Assembly (NCBI GenBank): GCA_043754535.1
Contig: JAYUUN010000081.1
Coordinates: 1 to 33,248, forward strand
Length of the DNA stretch: 33,248 bases
Reading direction: 5' to 3'
DNA from: Chloroflexota bacterium
Lineage (GTDB): Bacteria > Chloroflexota > Chloroflexia > QHBQ01
Each line of letters starts with the position of its first letter. The first letter of the stretch is position 1. Below the pieces are notes generated by a model. It ran no database searches and had not been told where the DNA came from. It saw nothing but the letters and a program-made list of their open reading frames with translations. This document shows positions 11,750 through 33,248 of the stretch, piece after piece. A program made the translations under genes and the position numbers.

Positions 11750-12552
11750 TTCGCGATCACCCAGCCTTCGAGCAGGTGCTAGCCGACTGGTGCCAAGCTG
11801 GCTTGCTGCCTGGCGGAGGCATTGCGTTGGATGGTGAGGAGCTACAGGGCAGCAGCCCACCCCATGTCGGACGCACCTACTTGTTGGCTGCTTACGCCTA
11901 CCAAAGCGGCTATGTTCTGGGTCAACTGGCGATTGGCAGCCGCGAGAACGAGAGCAGTACCGCACCCCCATTGCTGGCCTGGCTCAACTTGCAGGGCCAG
12001 GTTGTCACAGGCGATACCATGTTTACCCAAGTTAAGCTCTGCGCCCAGATTGTGGCCCAGGGTGGCGGCTACCTGTTTGTGGTCAAAGACAACCAACCTT
12101 GGCAAGCGACATCCAGAGGAAGTCCGCACGCTGCCCACCAGCCACGACCTGAACGATTATCTGGACTGGCCGTATGTGGGGCGGCTATGGTCGAGCGTGA
12201 GTGGTGGGACAGGCGAGGTCGCAGCCACTACCAGGGAGGTTACTTGATCACCAGTCTAGCCTCGGCCAGCGCAGCCAAGCTGTTGGCCTACAAACGCGGC
12301 CACTGGCAGATCGAGGATGTACTGCACTATGTGCGCGCCGCAACGATGGGTGAAGACCACAGCCAAGCACGCAAGGGCAGGCCAGCGGTAGTGGCAGCGA
12401 TGCGAAACACCACTATCGGCTTGCTGCGGCGGACAGGGGAGACCAACATCGTGGCGGCTCTGCGGCGCAACCTGATACACCCGCAACGGGCCTTCGCCTT
12501 GGTTGGGGTTCAGGTTCTACGAAAAGGCCTAACCGAGCATCTCCAGCATTGA
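11750..12552 (+). mobile_element. ISAs1-family transposase remnant (5'-truncated, frameshifted)
   Basis: IALDG..LQGS, VLGQ.....NE, VTGDTMFTQ...IVAQGGGYLFVVKDNQP, RGHWQIE..LHYVR..TMGED, RNTTIGLLR. The LDWPYVG segment lies in another frame near 12100-12190. Confidence 0.85.
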
Positions 12553-19643: not shown

Positions 19644-19658
19644 AATCACAACTGAATA

Positions 19659-19790
19659 GGTTCTCAGGGCAGGGCGCAATCCCCGACCGGCGGTGAGCCA
19701 TTATTGGCAAGCCCGCGAGCTGCATTAGCCATGTGGCATGACCTGGTGCAAAGCCAGGGCCGACAGTTACAGTCTGGATGAAAGAGAACC
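19659..19790 (+). ncRNA. FMN riboswitch (RFN element)
   Basis: P1 GGTTCTC/GAGAACC. AGGGCAGGGCGCAATCCCCGACCGGCGGT, AGCCCGCGAG, CTGGTGCAAAGCCAG, GCCGACAGT, AGTCTGGATGAAAGA match the RFN consensus. Confidence 0.95.
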
Positions 19791-19883
19791 ACACGCGAAC
19801 CATCCCCCGCACGATTGTTGTGTGCTACTGGGCTGGGTCGGCTCCAGCCGGGTGCTGCAATGTGCCTGTTGGCTTCGTGTTCC

Positions 19884-19919
19884 CCCTGCCCTGAAGAATG
19901 TGTGGCGGGGCTTTTTGTT
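19884..19919 (+). terminator. candidate attenuator of the FMN riboswitch
   Basis: CCCTGCC / GGCGGGG stem followed by CTTTTTGTT. Confidence 0.5.
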
Positions 19920-19937
19920 GCCCCAGGAGGTAGGGCG

Positions 19938-20759
19938 ATGATCAGCACAGCAGGGACGGAACGACAGGCGGAATTGGACGGCAACGAAGTGGCGGTGAAG
20001 CGGCGGCGCAAGCGTGCTGCCCGCGGCAAGGGCTGGCTCAACCTGCTCAGTTTTGCCAGCTTCCTTGCCCTCTGGCAGGCAGTGGTTTGGCTAGGCGGCT
20101 ACCCCAGCTTCATCCTACCCGGCCCCTGGGCGGTGCTGATCCGCTTCGGTCAGGCGATCCAGAGTGGGCTGCTGTGGGATAACACGCTGGTTACGCTAGG
20201 CGAGATCGCCCTCGGCTTTGGCCTGGGGGCAAGCGGGGGGCTACTGCTAGCCTACCTGCTCTACAAGTCGCGGTTGCTGGAAACGATCCTCGCCCCCTAC
20301 ATCGCCGCCAGCCAGGCTCTGCCAGTGGTAGCGATAGCCCCACTGCTCGTTCTCTGGTTCGGCTACGGTCTGTTGCCAAAGGTGCTGATCTGCGCGATCA
20401 TCGTCTTCTTCCCAATCACGATCAGCACAGTCGTCGGCTTCAAGAGCATCGAGCGCAGCCTGGTTGAGGTGGCCGACCTGTTCGGGGCGAACGGCTGGCA
20501 GAAGCTGCGGCTGGTCGAGGTGCCACTGGCCGCCCACAATATCTTCGCTGGCCTTCGTCTCGGCCTCACCCTCTCCGTTACCGGGGCAGTGGTGGGCGAG
20601 TTCGTCTCCCCCAGCCGCGGATTGGGCTACCTGCTCAACTTCAGCAGCAGCAGCCTGGATGCGCCGTTGCGTTTCGTCGCGCTGTTTACCCTCGTTGCCC
20701 TCGCTATCCTCGGCTACCGCAGCCTGACCGCCCTTGAACGCCGTTTGGTGGACTGGTAG
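19938..20759 (+). CDS. ribX: riboflavin ABC transporter permease (SsuC/TauC-like)
   Basis: SD AGGAGG, ATG 19938. QALPVVAIAPLL.LWFG and GAVVGEF motifs. Sits directly under an FMN riboswitch, as in Chloroflexi ribXY. Confidence 0.8.
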   Translation: MISTAGTERQAELDGNEVAVKRRRKRAARGKGWLNLLSFASFLALWQAVVWLGGYPSFILPGPWAVLIRFGQAIQSGLLWDNTLVTLGEIALGFGLGASGGLLLAYLLYKSRLLETILAPYIAASQALPVVAIAPLLVLWFGYGLLPKVLICAIIVFFPITISTVVGFKSIERSLVEVADLFGANGWQKLRLVEVPLAAHNIFAGLRLGLTLSVTGAVVGEFVSPSRGLGYLLNFSSSSLDAPLRFVALFTLVALAILGYRSLTALERRLVDW

Positions 20760-20832
20760 CCGATCAGCAACTTTGTACAGACCAACTACAGCATACATCA
20801 CATCACATAAGATTGCATAGGAGATTAGCGCA

Positions 20833-21846
20833 TTGCAGAAGCTCAAAGGATTGTTGTTGCTAATAACGATGGTAGGGTTGGTAGCGGGCTGCGACAGTGG
20901 GGGGACAGCTAACACCCCGGCTGCTGCGTTGAAGAAGGTTAGGATTGGCATGGGCTACATCCCCAATGTGCAGTTTGCTGCCTACTACGTTGCCCAGGAG
21001 AAAGGCTACTACCGACAGGCGGGCCTCGATGTCAGCTTCGATTATGGCAGCACAGACGATCTGCTGGCCCAGGTTGCGGTCGGTAAGCTCGACTTCGCCA
21101 ACTCAGAGGGCGACGAACTGATCGTGGCAGCTAGCAAGGGAGTGAAGGATGTCTACGTCCTTGCCCAGTACCAACGCTTCCCAGTAGCGGTCTTCTTTAT
21201 GGCCGACTCGCCGATCAAGACGGTAGCCGACCTGAAGGGCAAGCGGATCGGCCTGCCTGGTAAGTACGGCGCAAACTACAACGGCCTGCTCGCTATGCTC
21301 TACGCCAACCAGATGACAGAGCAGGATGTGCGGCTGCAAGAGGTTGGTTACACCCAGGCCCAGGCGGTGCAGAGCGGCCAGGTAGACGCTGCGGTGGGCT
21401 ATGCAGTCAACGAGCCGATAGCATTGGCGGCTCAGGGCGTGAAGCTACGTACCTTGCAGGCCAGCGACAGCTACAATCTCGCTAGCATCGGCATTATCAC
21501 CAGCCAGGACAAGGTGGCCCAAGACCCCACAACCGTACAAGCCTTTGTCAGCGCGACCCTGCACGGCATTGCCGACATGAACGCCGACCCCGACGCGGCC
21601 TATGCTATCGCGGCAAAGAAGGAGTACGCTAACATTGACCAGCCGAACAGCGCAGTGCAACTGGCTGTGCTGAAGGAGACGGCGAAGTTTCAGCAGCCGA
21701 GTGGCAACCAGAGGCTGGGGGCGAGCGACCCGGCGGTGTGGGCCGCGACCGCAAAGTTCCTGCAAGCCAGCGGCCTGGTCAGCACGCAGCTAGATGTCAG
21801 CACCCTCTACACCAACCGCTTCGTCGAGGCTAGCCGGGTAAAATTA
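20833..21846 (+). CDS. ribY: riboflavin-binding lipoprotein (NMT1/THI5-like); ends at TTA 21844-21846 if UUA terminates, standard-code stop 21918
   Basis: Lipobox LVAGC, GYIPNVQFAAYYVAQEKGYY..AGLDV, DLKGKRIG.PG, C-terminal YTNRFV. Riboswitch context. Confidence 0.82.
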
Positions 21847-21942
21847 AGGCTGGCACGCGAGATGCTTGTAGAGCAATCAACTGTCCAAAAAGGAGATTAT
21901 CCACCCTGCGTGAGCTAGTCTAGTCGAACTACGGACAAGAAA

Positions 21943-28546: not shown

Positions 28547-29053
28547 CTACCAGGCTGCTTGCAGACAACTGGCCGCCCACTCGATGGTGGCAGCCATCTT
28601 GCCCAGCAATGCCGTGCGGCTGCTACCCGTGCTGCTCACATCAATGCAGGAGAGAGGGCCGCGCAGGGTCTGCGTGCGCCCGTCGCGGCTGGTCAGTTGC
28701 AGGGTAACAATGCTGGCCGCCGCTAGTAGCGCGTCCTCGTCCGGCTGCACTGTCCCCCACAACACCAGGTCGGCCCCTACCTCGGCTGCCAGCAGGCGGG
28801 CGGCTGCTTCCTCGTTCAAGGCTGGCCCCAGGGCGATCAGCGGGTTGATCTGCTCAACCCCCCCCTTGCGTAGCTGGGCAGCCACCATCCCCGGCACCAG
28901 GTCACGCAGTTCGTAGCAGCCTCCGCCCTGCTCTGGCGCAATACATTGCAGCGCGCAGATGTAGAGGCGCACAGCGGCAGGGCGAAGGCTGGCAGCTATG
29001 TTGAGCGGGGGCTGGTTGTTGCTGATCTGGGCAAACGAGGGGTTAATTTCCAT
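28547..29053 (-). CDS. hypothetical protein
   Basis: ATG 29053 after GGAG. Has its own promoter. A..L...GADLVLWGTV resembles TolB-N/CsgG-like alpha/beta domains (weak). Confidence 0.65.
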   Translation of the reverse strand: MEINPSFAQISNNQPPLNIAASLRPAAVRLYICALQCIAPEQGGGCYELRDLVPGMVAAQLRKGGVEQINPLIALGPALNEEAAARLLAAEVGADLVLWGTVQPDEDALLAAASIVTLQLTSRDGRTQTLRGPLSCIDVSSTGSSRTALLGKMAATIEWAASCLQAAW

Positions 29054-29111
29054 GTTAGTCTCCAATATTGAGCGAGGTCAGGTGTAGCTTGCGTTTACGC
29101 AAGTTCATCCA

Positions 29112-29153
29112 ATTATAGCCTCTCCCCTGCCATTTGGCAAGTCCTACTTGCCA
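29112..29153 (-). promoter_or_regulatory. promoter with overlapping palindrome
   Basis: Minus strand TTGCCA (29140-29135), 17 bp spacer, TATAAT (29117-29112). TGGCAAGT-cct-ACTTGCCA at 29135-29153. Confidence 0.65.
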
Positions 29154-29236: not shown

Positions 29237-31273
29237 TTAGCTGCACTCGATCTTGACGAAGCGACGCTTGCCCGCCCGTACGATCAGCCCAGCTACCGGC
29301 TTGACGCTGGCATTGGGGTCACTCACCTTCTGCTCATCCAGGCTGACCCCACCTTGCTCGACCAGGCGGCGAGCCTCCTTGCGGCTGGGCGCGAGGCCAC
29401 ACTTGAGCAGCAGGTCAAGAATGTTGGTCGATTCGCAGGCTAGCTGGGCCGTGGGGATTTCATCGGGCAACCCCTTGTCTTGGAACACGGTGGCGAAGTG
29501 TTGCGCCCCGGCCTCGGCCCCCACATCGCCATGATAGAGGCGCACAATCTCGGAGGCTAGCCGCTTCTTCGCCAGCATTGGGTTCTGGCCTGCCGCGAGA
29601 TCGACCCTGATCTGCTCGATCTCAGCTAGTGGCACCTCAGTGGTAGCAACAAAGTAGTCCACGATCTGCTCGTCACTCAGGCTCATCACCTTGCCGTACA
29701 TATCAGCTGGCGCGTCGATGATGTTGATCGTGTTGCCCCAACTGCTGCTCATCTTACGCCCATCCAGACCCATGATCATCATATTAGTGATGATCTGCTG
29801 CGGGTTTTGGCCGTAAGCCTTCTGGATCACCCGCCCCGCTGTCAGGTTGAACAACTGGTCGGTGCCACCCAACTCTATGTCGGCGCGCACTGCTACGCTG
29901 TCGTAACCTTGCATCAGCGGGTAGAGGAACTCTTGCAGGCCAATCGGCTTGTCATCCTCCCACCGCTGCTTGAAGTTCTCGCGCTGGATCATCTGTGCGA
30001 CGGTGAACTGGCTAGCAAGGCCGATCAGGGCTGCGAAGTTCATCTGGCCTAGCCACTCGCTATTGAAGCGGAACTCCACCTCACCCTGATCGAGGATGCT
30101 CCTGATCTGGTCAATATAGGTCGCCATGTTCTGGCCCACCTGGGCTGCCGTCAGCATTGGGCGGGTAGCATCCTTGTCGCTGGCATCACCAAGCTGGCCG
30201 GTCACATCGCCGATGATAATCACTGCCTGGTGGCCCAGCTTCTGAAACTGGCGCAGCTTGCGGATCGCTACCGCCCGCCCGATGTGTATTTTGCTGCTGG
30301 TTGGGTCAATGCCGAGCTTGACCCGCAGTTGCCGCCCGCTCCGCAGCAGCTTTGCCAAATCCTCACGCACAATCACATCCACCACTCCCCGCGTCAGGAT
30401 ATCCTGGATCGCCACCTCATCAGTGCTGATCTTTGGGGGGGCCAGCATCTTCTCGGCCTCTGGCGGGGCGGTTGGTAGCGGTTGGCTAGCCTGGTCGCCG
30501 ATGATCTCGCTCATGTCGCTGATCAGCGGGTCTGCGAGGTCGAGGTCGTCGTCCGGCCAGGAGCAGCGGGGGTGTTGGCGGTCAAGGTGGAAGGTGCGCA
30601 CCTGCCCACCCAGTTGCTCATGCACCAGCTTCGCCAGCTCGTCAGTGGCGGCGCGCACCTGCTCCTCGTTGACCCCTAGCCAGCCGTCAATAGGGAGAAA
30701 GACGGCCACGCTGTCCTCACGTATCTTCGCTCCATTGCCCTGCCGCCAAACCCAGCGGCGGGTTCGCACCTGGTTGCTGTCGTCCACGTAGACAAACTCA
30801 CCAGCGGGCAGTTGCTCCGGCTCGCCCGGCTCGTCGTCACCGCCAAGAGGCTGAAAGAGGTCGCCCTCACGAGCGGGGCGCAGGGTGATGTCGCCGACGG
30901 TGCGATCCAGGTCGTGTGCGCCAATCGGCAGCAGGTACTTGAGAGCGACGCTGTTTGCCAGGTCTACCAGCGGGTTGATGTGGGGCAGCTTGCCTTTAAT
31001 CGCCCGGCCAGCTAGGGCCTCGATGCTGACGGGGTACTTGTTGGCGTTGATACCGAGGGCGGTGAACGCCTGCCGCCAGGCTGCAATGCCGGGGCTAGCT
31101 TGCAGGGCAGAGAGGCTGGCATACTGCGCCCGCAGATCGGTAATCGCCTGATCTAGGAGGAAGTCTATCGCCTCGTCATCGGCATAGTCCTGCCCCACCC
31201 CATGAGCGACCACCACGCCGAGGTAGAGGTTGGGGAACCGTTCAAGTACCGCCTGATCAATCGTGAAGTGCAT
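29237..31273 (-). CDS. tyrS: tyrosine--tRNA ligase with N-terminal B3/4 (PheRS-beta editing-like) domain
   Basis: ATG 31273 after GAGGT. B3/4: AWRQAF...YPVSIEAL...INPLVDLAN...GEFVYVD...RRWVWRQ. TyrRS: KLGIDPT..IHIGR, YPLMQGYD, GGTDQ, KMSSS, C-terminal S4 domain. Confidence 0.92.
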   Translation of the reverse strand: MHFTIDQAVLERFPNLYLGVVVAHGVGQDYADDEAIDFLLDQAITDLRAQYASLSALQASPGIAAWRQAFTALGINANKYPVSIEALAGRAIKGKLPHINPLVDLANSVALKYLLPIGAHDLDRTVGDITLRPAREGDLFQPLGGDDEPGEPEQLPAGEFVYVDDSNQVRTRRWVWRQGNGAKIREDSVAVFLPIDGWLGVNEEQVRAATDELAKLVHEQLGGQVRTFHLDRQHPRCSWPDDDLDLADPLISDMSEIIGDQASQPLPTAPPEAEKMLAPPKISTDEVAIQDILTRGVVDVIVREDLAKLLRSGRQLRVKLGIDPTSSKIHIGRAVAIRKLRQFQKLGHQAVIIIGDVTGQLGDASDKDATRPMLTAAQVGQNMATYIDQIRSILDQGEVEFRFNSEWLGQMNFAALIGLASQFTVAQMIQRENFKQRWEDDKPIGLQEFLYPLMQGYDSVAVRADIELGGTDQLFNLTAGRVIQKAYGQNPQQIITNMMIMGLDGRKMSSSWGNTINIIDAPADMYGKVMSLSDEQIVDYFVATTEVPLAEIEQIRVDLAAGQNPMLAKKRLASEIVRLYHGDVGAEAGAQHFATVFQDKGLPDEIPTAQLACESTNILDLLLKCGLAPSRKEARRLVEQGGVSLDEQKVSDPNASVKPVAGLIVRAGKRRFVKIECS

Positions 31274-31300
31274 TCTGCTAACCTCATCCCTTTTGGCTGC

Positions 31301-32683
31301 TAACCGCTTGCCGCTCAGTCGATTGAGTACTCGCATGACGCGGCCACTCTGCACAGCGGTCAGGTGCGCCTGCATGACAGCCAGTTGTTGGCGCAGGTTG
31401 GCGATCTCGTCCTCCAGGTTCTGCACCCGCGCCGCCCCGCTCATGGGCGAGGCCGCTTGCCCGTAATCGGGCAGGTGGGCGGCCAGCAACTCAGCGTCAC
31501 TCAGGCGGGCCTGCTCTGCACCAAAGCGTTTGAGGCGGGCAATGGCTTCGTGTTCGCGGTAGGCCAGTTCGCTACCAACCACAGGCTGGGCGGCGGTCTG
31601 CTGCCGCTTGCGCTCGGTCAGCATCTCTAGCAGGGGAAGGAACTGCTGTGACCGCGCTTCGGGCGTGTAGCGCACAAACACGTCGTCGAAGGCCGCTCTG
31701 CCGATACGCACCCGCTCCGCAGGGTCGAGCAGCCGATAGATCGCCGCCGCCCACTCGTCGTCGCCGCTGGCTAGCAGGCCGTTCTCGCCGTCGCGGATCG
31801 CTTCCCGAAAGGCGGGAGTGGGGCTGGCGATAGTGGGTACGCCGACCACCCCGGCCTCAAAATACTTCAGCTCGCTCTTTGCCATCGCGAACGGGTTGTC
31901 CAGTTCGAGGGGGGCGAGGTTGATGTCAGCCTGGGCCTGGATGCTGGGCAGTTGCCGCCAGGGAACGAAGCCGAACCGCTGCACCCGTGCTGTCCCTTCG
32001 TACTGGAACAGTGGCTCTGGCAGGCTCAGGTAGCCGCCAACCAGTAGCCTCACCTCTGGCCGCTCGCTCATCACCCGTGCCAGGGCAGGGACGACCAGAG
32101 CAAAGTCGCGGCTGTGGCTAGGCGAGCCGCTCAGGTAGCAGATGGTGATCGTAGCTGGGTCGCTGGTTGCCGCAGGCTGGGTGGCGAAAGCTGGTTGCTG
32201 CTGGGTAGCATAGATGATCTGGTCGTCGTAGAGGGCGTTGCGATTGACAAAAGCAGGCTTGCCGGTCTGCTCCGTCACCTGCGCGGCCAGGTAGGGGGTG
32301 CTGGTCAGGGCGAAGTCGCACTGGTCGAGGGTGGCGCGGTTGGCCGCGAACTGGCGCAGGTGCAGGGCGGTGTCCGCAGGCGGCATCTGGTAGAGCAGGT
32401 CGATCCGCTGGGCCAACTCTGGCAGGAATACAAGGTCATCGGTATCGTAGAGCGCAAGTTGGCCGCGATCCTGGATCACCGCCAGCATGGCGGCCACGGT
32501 CGGGGTGTAGCTGGCCCGGCAGAAGATGAAGGTGTCGTAGTCGCCCAGGTCGGCCAGCAGCAGCGGGTCGTCGGCGGAGCGCACAGCAGCGGCCACCCCT
32601 GCGAACCAGAGTTGCTCGGCCTGGTGCCAGGCGCGGTAACGCTCGGTGTCGCCGCTCCAACCAGCAATGAACAGTACCTTCAC
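31301..32683 (-). CDS. GT-B (GT4-like) glycosyltransferase with C-terminal coiled coil; in the standard code it reads through into tyrS
   Basis: GTG 32683 after GGAG. RYRAWHQAEQL, YDTDDLVF, GSPSH..D, DINLAPLE..NPF..AKSELKYFEAG..GVPTIAS. Tail VQSGRVMRVL is typical of polysaccharide-cluster proteins, then TTA at 31303-31301. Confidence 0.85.
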
Positions 32684-32687
32684 TGGC

Positions 32688-33248
32688 TCAGACTCCGATC
32701 CCGTTGTGCGGGCGATTGGCCGTCGCCTCGTCCTGCGCCAGGCTGCGGTCAAACTGGGACTGCGCCTCGGCACTAGCCTGCGCCCCGGCCAATTCCTCAC
32801 CGCTCAAGAGCAGGTCGCTGCTACTCTCAGCGTACTCTGCACTGGCTAGCTCGTGGCTGGTGGTACCATTCGTAGCCACGCCGTTGCTAGCTGGTTGGAG
32901 CAGGTCGTGCTTGCCGTTGCCGTTCAAGGCTGGCGAGGCAGCAGGCGGCCCAATGAAGTCGGCAGCCACGCCACTCGGTTCGGTGAACTCGCCGATCAGG
33001 AAGTCAAACTCGCGCTTGGTGTGCGTCTGTGGGGCTTCCTCGGTGCAATGCTGCCACGCGGCATCTACCTGGATCAGGCCATAACGTTCACCGCCCAGTT
33101 CTGGCTGCACGTCGAAGGTGTACCAGTGGTCGTGGTAGTCGAGGCAGTTGATCAGTTCGTTGTCATAGATCGAAACGGCAACATCAAAGTGGCCCTCCAG
33201 CAGCGGCAGCTTGGCGATCTTATAATCCACGTAGCCCTTACCGTGGAT
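32688..33248 (-). CDS. C-terminal part of polysaccharide ABC exporter ATPase (Wzt C-terminal domain), partial
   Basis: G.GYVDY.I..LPLLEG.FDV.VSIYD......DYHD..Y.F.V......YG resembles Wzt_C. Next to a glycosyltransferase. Confidence 0.7.
   Translation of the reverse strand: MHGKGYVDYKIAKLPLLEGHFDVAVSIYDNELINCLDYHDHWYTFDVQPELGGERYGLIQVDAAWQHCTEEAPQTHTKREFDFLIGEFTEPSGVAADFIGPPAASPALNGNGKHDLLQPASNGVATNGTTSHELASAEYAESSSDLLLSGEELAGAQASAEAQSQFDRSLAQDEATANRPHNGIGV

Follow-up and report, generated by a model that had tools for sequence, protein, structure and literature searches.

A CtdA-like B3/4 domain naturally fused to tyrosyl-tRNA synthetase in Chloroflexota, a candidate proofreading module for tRNA(Tyr)

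The stretch of DNA analysed here (33,248 nt, referred to as the window) contains, on its minus strand, a stop-free frame from an ATG at position 31273 to a stop at 29237, which encodes a protein of 678 aa (P0001). Pfam analysis of this protein identified a B3_4 domain (aa 65-219, E 8.6e-23), a tRNA-synt_1b domain (PF00579; aa 313-598, E 1.3e-68) and an S4-like C-terminus (aa 604-673), and so agrees with the sequence-only reading of this DNA, which had described a B3/4 domain of about 240 aa, an acidic, proline-rich linker and a complete tyrosyl-tRNA synthetase (TyrRS) in a single frame. The CtdA-like B3/4 domain comprises aa 1-240 (30554..31273, minus strand; PF03483, phmmer and structure alignment), and the TyrRS, which is complete and belongs to the Thermus thermophilus type, lies at 29237..30424 (minus strand; TIGR00234 and Foldseek). 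The acidic, Pro-rich flexible linker that joins them (30425..30553, minus strand; aa 241-283) has 11 Asp/Glu and 7 Pro in the 45 residues of aa 241-285 and a mean identity of 12% among homologues; it is the low-confidence exception in an AlphaFold model of the fusion (mean pLDDT 91.3), with pLDDT <50 at aa 242-259 and 261-263. Contigs from all four of the sequencing runs checked (of 15 listed; four studies, none marked as a possible source) contained no indel and no stop, and thus none of the stops or frameshifts between the domains that the earlier reading had named as fatal to it. Of the 16 substitutions listed in these contigs, none falls within 30699-31756, in the linker or at either domain junction, and a single contig covers the whole stretch in two of the four runs. 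An assembly artefact was ruled out by the run contigs, by the same frame in a genome of the same genus (G001) and by the database cluster members. No RNA dataset was found among the listed runs carrying the fusion stretch.

No stop interrupts the frame over the 509 codons 5' of the ATG at 31273, giving 1187 aa from a GTG at 32800 or 1148 aa from a GTG at 32683. This extension (31274..32683, minus strand) encodes, in frame and with no stop, a family-4-like glycosyltransferase with a helical tail (PF13692/PF00534), which the sequence-only reading had overlooked, together with the loss of a T-box found in relatives. The 1148-aa product belongs to a database cluster of nine members, eight of them of 1148-1155 aa, and the glycosyltransferase is likewise in frame with the fusion in G001. 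Homologues of the fusion begin at the Met of ATG 31273, and a Shine-Dalgarno-like GAGGT (31281..31285, minus strand) lies 7 nt 5' of it; as this site is kept in both the source genome (G000) and G001, ATG 31273 is probably an internal start for the 678-aa protein, and the cell may make the 678-aa form, the 1148-aa form or the two together. In the sister genus, two complete copies of the glycosyltransferase are separate proteins (a third is cut by the contig), and in one copy the stop lies about nine residues before the position of the fusion Met; the gene was not found at E 1e-10 in 36 more distant genomes. Since G000 and G001 alone have it in the tyrS frame, a conserved third module was ruled out. 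Upstream, the glycosyltransferase gene adjoins a Wzt-type ABC gene (complete in G001). No T-box was found in the window, whereas in relatives a Tyr T-box precedes tyrS at the place where the glycosyltransferase stands here. It would appear that in this genus tyrS ended up behind the glycosyltransferase gene and that the intervening stop was lost. As the locus now stands, a housekeeping synthetase forms the last part of a glycan export operon and its Tyr T-box is absent.

Elsewhere in the window, tyrS is followed by an unassigned frame of 172 aa (28547-29065, minus strand), beside which lies a strong sigma-70-like site (29112-29140; 11/12, with about one expected by chance in the region). An FMN riboswitch (109.5 bits) precedes two genes, one for an ABC permease, the other for an NMT1/THI5-like binding protein (19656-21918, plus strand), probably a riboflavin-type transporter, and a DDE transposase fragment was identified at 11776-12552 (plus strand).

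The synthetase part scored 348.7 bits with TIGR00234 (tyrS), for which the cut-off is 113.8, and possesses the signatures of a bacterial TyrRS, all on the minus strand: HIGR (30275-30286, aa 330), KMSSS (29741-29755, aa 507), an S4-like tRNA-binding domain at the C-terminus (29255-29464; PF22421/PF01479) and the tyrosine-pocket residues Y451/Q455/D458/Q473. In a Foldseek search it came closest to T. thermophilus TyrRS. With these motifs present, it is predicted to charge tRNA(Tyr) with tyrosine in the normal way. No second TyrRS was found by tblastn or with the PF00579 profile in the genome, which is 89% complete; the other two PF00579 matches, a pair of TrpRS-like paralogues (G000 C124:25180-26025 and C128:80189-81070), are TrpRS by their motifs in our reading. 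Comparison of 69 fused with 25 unfused TyrRSs gave no sign of a relaxed site and no active-site change, the two columns that differ not being among the tracked pocket residues. T. thermophilus-type TyrRS (1h3e, 9sdf; PMC6765224) resembles this part of P0001 in its catalytic, helical and S4-like domains, at ~39% identity, and a separate Dtd is present in the genome here too; however, PMC6765224 describes that enzyme without an editing domain, whereas P0001 has 240 aa of B3/4 domain at its N-terminus.

Dtd was found in 38/41 genomes, including G000 and seven of the eight fused relatives (the one miss, G018, is 73% complete), which rules out that the domain replaces a missing Dtd. For G000 it was also ruled out that the domain makes up for a PheRS whose editing site is dead, since a PheT encoded elsewhere in this genome has a B3/4 domain of its own and keeps its editing motifs; the same finding weakens the proposal that the fusion trans-edits PheRS errors. 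Two further tRNA genes of note were predicted in this genome by ARAGORN, a doubtful-looking tRNA-Pyl(CUA) (G000 C31:4032-4124) and a tRNA-Sec(UCA) (G000 C84:51665-51759).

Structure alignment of the B3/4 domain (VIA-align) with CtdA, the canavanyl-tRNA(Arg) deacylase, gave Z 25.3 and rmsd 2.6 over 223 aligned residues for 9f7e and Z 24.8 for 9mkl, compared with Z <=15.4 for PheRS beta; the domain thus resembles the stand-alone type, as had been claimed from the letters. With phmmer, the match to 9f7e had E 2.2e-16 and 64 bits; identity to CtdA is 23%. The domain has the whole 230-aa fold of the CtdA structural family as well as N107, G118 and Q178, equivalent to N105, G116 and Q/E173 of CtdA. 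Asn107 (30953..30955, minus strand) is also the counterpart of PheRS-beta N254, and N105 is essential in CtdA (PMC12449066). The motif R170-T-R-R-W-V-W-R-Q178 (30740..30766, minus strand) contains RRWVWRQ, whose arginines match the tRNA-end binding rim proposed for CtdA. Fold, RRWxWRQ, N105, G116, Q173 and basic rim are therefore features in common with CtdA (9f7e, 9mkl; PMC10018355, PMC12449066, bioRxiv 10.1101/2024.11.30.626143). CtdA, in contrast, is free-standing, and its pocket differs: in the residue numbering of the CtdA papers, Y104 corresponds to Ala106, E118 to His120, T165 to Arg170, C166 to Thr171, I189 to Pro194 and E191 to Asp196. His120, at the pocket floor, is part of a G118-A-H120-D motif (30911..30922, minus strand), and Pro194 and Asp196 are part of P194-I-D196-G (30683..30694, minus strand), for which the register was extrapolated by counting past the end of the CtdA alignment; the geometry of the pocket is deduced from alignments. 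Domains of this type are labelled here the His-pocket, or GxHD, subtype, a name coined in this analysis.

Mutagenesis reported for CtdA shows that Y104F, N105D, E118Q and E191V each abolish editing, that changes at G116, Q173 and N105 inactivate the enzyme (PMC12449066) and that C166 tolerates Ser or Ala (PMC12449066). The oddity remarked on earlier, LVDLAN in place of LVDLYN, falls on Y104 of CtdA, one of these sensitive positions. In place of the Y104/E118/E191/C166 of characterised CtdA-1, P0001 has Ala106, His120, Asp196 and Thr171, and it is not free-standing; nor does it resemble CtdA-2, in which the C166 position is missing in bacteria according to PMC12449066, since Thr171 stands within an ungapped RRWxWRQ. 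The PheRS beta B3/B4 domain, a Tyr-/m-Tyr-tRNA(Phe) hydrolase, shares the core fold and the Asn. However, PheRS H265 and G318, aligned to CtdA G116 and Q173 in PMC12449066, are Gly118 and Gln178 in P0001, and E334, which binds the Tyr hydroxyl (PMC3275996), would fall on Pro194, judging from a 16-residue offset; TIGR00472 gave 18.1 bits, against 402.65. An ordinary canavanyl-tRNA(Arg) deacylase that came to lie on TyrRS by chance would account for the shared fold and for the retention of N105, G116 and Q173; C166 tolerates substitution, and stand-alone members of the subtype appear as putative CtdA in the supplement of PMC12449066. We regard this as very improbable, as E118Q and Y104F each abolish canavanyl editing and, in the subtype, these positions are occupied by His and by a small residue, whereas ArgRS-fused and stand-alone Chloroflexota copies keep the Tyr and the Glu and reach 118 bits against CtdA, about twice the 64 bits of P0001.

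The pocket substitutions relative to CtdA are common to two families of fusions and to 49 stand-alone members. In the first family (n=104, an alignment of homologues with PF03483 and PF00579 in which P0001 was substituted for P0002), no variation was seen at Asn107, Gly118, Thr171 or Asp196, while 102/104 have His120 and 76/104 have Gln178; in the second, from Clostridia (n=119), Asn, Gly and Thr are invariant and His, Gln and Asp are each found in 118/119. In three genome pairs the dN/dS of the domain was 0.08, 0.12 and 0.15, that of TyrRS 0.04-0.06 and that of the linker 0.23-0.45; the domain is under purifying selection. To judge from its residues, the pocket is neither a canavanine nor a tyrosine pocket, yet it is held constant. 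The altered specificity proposed by the sequence-only reading is partly supported by this selection and by a pocket unlike that of PheRS or CtdA, but its D-Tyr option is weakened by the presence of Dtd.

The changes at Y104, E118 and E191 may, however, signify loss of hydrolysis and not a new specificity. In another reading, in which it is no aminoacyl-tRNA hydrolase, the domain would bind the acceptor end, or would bind or destroy a small molecule (a tyrosyl-type inhibitor or an adenylate), and thereby support or protect TyrRS; Y104 and E118, required in CtdA, are replaced, the invariant Arg/Trp rim would suffice for RNA binding, and two gut loci (L167, L175; see below) lie without a T-box in a biosynthesis-like cluster. 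We consider this quite unlikely, because conservation of the buried residues N107, G118, H120, T171 and D196 reaches 98-100% in each family, which goes beyond simple RNA binding, and because the PheRS B3/4 domain hydrolyses its substrate though unlike CtdA at most of these positions (PMC12449066).

Both PF03483 and PF00579 are present in 104 of the 120 homologues listed, from sources named Chloroflexota and with the window's own cluster as one of them. Among 40 relatives the fusion is whole in seven and split across two contig ends in one, and in family f2 it was found in 0/26. In a sample of the phylum the domain profile matched in 83/401 genomes, and, with the source genome set aside, the match lies in a frame of at least 550 aa, whatever the partner, in 26 of 400. 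The best 80 of 183 GTDB loci comprise 29 fused to TyrRS (27 titled Chloroflexota, two untitled), one cut and 50 stand-alone, mostly Bacillota. A search with a Clostridia-side query, covering proteins of 354-1127 aa, revealed the second family (126 matches), whose members include Blautia wexlerae and Butyribacter intestini, cultured gut Clostridia; of its 120 listed long proteins, 118 have PF00579, two are TyrRS remnants and none has another synthetase. P0198 is by eye a further cut TyrRS fusion, without Pfam support, and was left out of the counts. No carriage of the fusion was found on viral contigs, and none of 294 matching plasmid records covers 80% of the query. Unpublished genomes used were G007 (which supplied one stand-alone CtdA-type domain out of four), G012 (unfused TyrRS and T-box) and G034 (unfused TyrRS), and the tallies of relatives, of Dtd and of the phylum sample take in the unpublished G015 and G267; no main claim depends on unpublished genomes alone.

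Fusion to synthetases is a general habit of CtdA-like domains. Among the best 150 of 3894 profile matches, the 26 longer proteins scanned included five ArgRS fusions (P0132, with two domain copies, P0220, P0240, P0258 and P0268), two class II LysRS fusions (P0237 and P0246) and ten TyrRS fusions. Pocket type tracks the partner synthetase: the ArgRS-fused domains keep Y104 and E118 (6/6), the LysRS-fused ones have Y104 and Asp118 (2/2), and His is found in none of these eight and in 71/74 TyrRS-fused domains of the tree set, while the TyrRS fusions P0233 and P0234 have other pockets. In long proteins, the His-pocket subtype was found only on TyrRS or its remnants, which suggests a proofreading step for TyrRS. 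With regard to origin, the synthetase part of the Clostridia fusions P0108 and P0181 falls within a group of Bacillota TyrRSs that are not fused, and a single clade of these with the Chloroflexota set was rejected (p-AU 0.000166, 32 rows; 14/46 rows, namely outgroups, long branches and near-duplicates, had been dropped and the tested group was chosen after earlier comparisons). In the B3/4 tree the second family lies among Bacillota stand-alone domains, but a single origin was not rejected (p-AU 0.08, 42 rows); there may have been two fusions, or one fusion followed by a partner swap. Unfused TyrRSs, some of them possibly cut sequences, nest among fused ones, which indicates that the domain is dispensable.

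Four metagenome proteins retain the two ends of the fusion: in P0183 and P0389 the B3/4 domain and S4-like end are intact and the synthetase core is decayed, and in P0191 and P0388 the B3/4 domain is followed by a TyrRS S4-like end, the core being deleted. They represent at most three events (clusters of 1-2 members for the three of four checked) and are candidate trans-editing factors. TyrRS orthologues of P0001 sit behind UAC T-boxes: in Chloroflexota, nine of ten tyrS loci scanned (six fused, three unfused) have an upstream T-box match that scores under the Rfam cut-off, all with UAC, and in gut loci a T-box above the cut-off with a UAC specifier was found in 4/8 scanned, with tRNA-Tyr directly upstream in two.

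None of the 50 stand-alone members lies within ~4 kb of a tyrS; nine, from related Clostridia, are preceded by a gene for a MerR regulator, and 4/5 of these regulators scanned have a GyrI-like sensor domain (L063, L064, L079, L084, L097, L101, L102, L103 and L106, upstream of 4001), and some lie among amino-acid catabolism genes. No riboswitch was found directly upstream in the 17 of these 50 loci scanned, and their neighbours share no pathway and hence give no clue to the substrate. These observations bear on a passenger role, in which the domain would actively deacylate some other mischarged tRNA, and tyrS would serve as a carrier that is expressed steadily and offers a tRNA-binding surface: 50 of the best 80 members are stand-alone and away from tyrS, nine of them behind the MerR/GyrI-like regulator gene, the linker is long and unconserved, and free-standing deacylases often correct synthetases of unrelated fold (PMC11415595). 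A passenger is nevertheless unlikely, as the His-pocket subtype was found fused only to TyrRS or its remnants, on two TyrRS lineages, and the decayed forms retain the S4-like end.

Taken as a whole, the fusion is probably a housekeeping TyrRS with a tethered deacylase, of an uncharacterised CtdA subtype, for mischarged tRNA(Tyr). When a tyrosine look-alike has been attached, the arginine rim of the B3/4 domain would take the acceptor end and the side chain would enter the pocket floored by His120 and Asp196; the ester would be hydrolysed near Asn107/Gly118, as CtdA mutagenesis suggests, and L-Tyr would be spared, the Tyr-gripping residues of PheRS being absent. The long variable linker suggests local recapture and not a rigid hand-over. 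Counted in favour of this tethered deacylase are the CtdA fold and catalytic positions, purifying selection in 3/3 pairs, a pocket that follows the partner, long proteins with TyrRS only, the two TyrRS lineages, decayed forms keeping the S4-like end, the UAC T-boxes and a published engineered chimera. Counted against it are the changes to the essential CtdA residues Y104 and E118 and the shortening of E191, the distance of stand-alone members from tyrS, the unfused TyrRSs among fused ones and the lack of any active-site difference between the two, the B3/4 tree's tolerance of a single origin, the other pockets of P0233 and P0234, the joining of CtdA-like domains to ArgRS and LysRS as well, the rarity of the decayed forms, and the fact that T-boxes reflect regulation of tyrS and not the substrate of the domain. 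By analogy to CtdA and from pocket chemistry, on which the ranking of substrates depends, the likeliest class would be non-protein analogues of tyrosine with a modified ring, DOPA for example, a class which takes somewhat over half of the weight we place on the tethered deacylase; Phe would take about a quarter of that weight and D-Tyr about a sixth. More broadly, we give roughly an even chance that this is a natural proofreading TyrRS, in which an uncharacterised His/Asp-pocket branch of CtdA-like deacylases that clears a tyrosine analogue from tRNA(Tyr) became attached to TyrRS once in Chloroflexota and a second time in gut Clostridia, and persists, where the core has decayed, as a trans factor made of editor and S4 part; taken with the ArgRS and LysRS fusions, CtdA-like domains would then be a plug-in editing kit, re-tuned for each partner, for synthetases held to have no editing domain.

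Two reviews list editing domains in seven synthetases, TyrRS not being among them (PMC11415595, PMC6765224). The engineered chimera of B3/B4 and TyrRS is reported to have editing activity on tRNA(Tyr) (Oki 2008, as summarised in PMC3275996) and, like P0001, has a B3/B4 domain tethered to TyrRS; it is, however, artificial, of archaeal PheRS type and removes Tyr, whereas P0001 is natural, of CtdA type and has an unaltered TyrRS. No paper on a natural B3/4-TyrRS fusion was found in the mainly open-access literature searched. In the accessible text of PMC12449066, whose phylogeny comprises proteins of 180-260 aa only, 'fused' and 'fusion' do not occur, and its supplement, as obtained and possibly incomplete, has no match for 'tyrosine' or 'tyrosyl'. 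The CtdA papers leave the substrates of divergent CtdA-like proteins an open question; the fusion points one uncharacterised branch of these at tRNA(Tyr), which is testable, with Blautia wexlerae and Butyribacter intestini as cultured carriers. If true, this would identify an analogue of tyrosine with importance in nature, and genetic-code expansion based on TyrRS would gain an editing module of natural origin.

Some individual loci show arrangements of their own. At L169:7616-9929 and L174:7615-9929, tRNA-Tyr(GTA), a Tyr T-box and a fused tyrS lie in a row in differing surroundings, which has the look of a movable cassette. The second-family fusions at L167:2380-13524 and L175:8001-16697 have no T-box match or motif and lie in a biosynthesis-like cluster with NeuB, a PLP-dependent decarboxylase and methyltransferases (L167 also has an SDR, a split transketolase and an NDK-like gene); at these two loci the fusion is possibly a self-protection gene. 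At L186:6040-8684, a CtdA-like stand-alone gene abuts a gene for an archaeal-type ThrRS.
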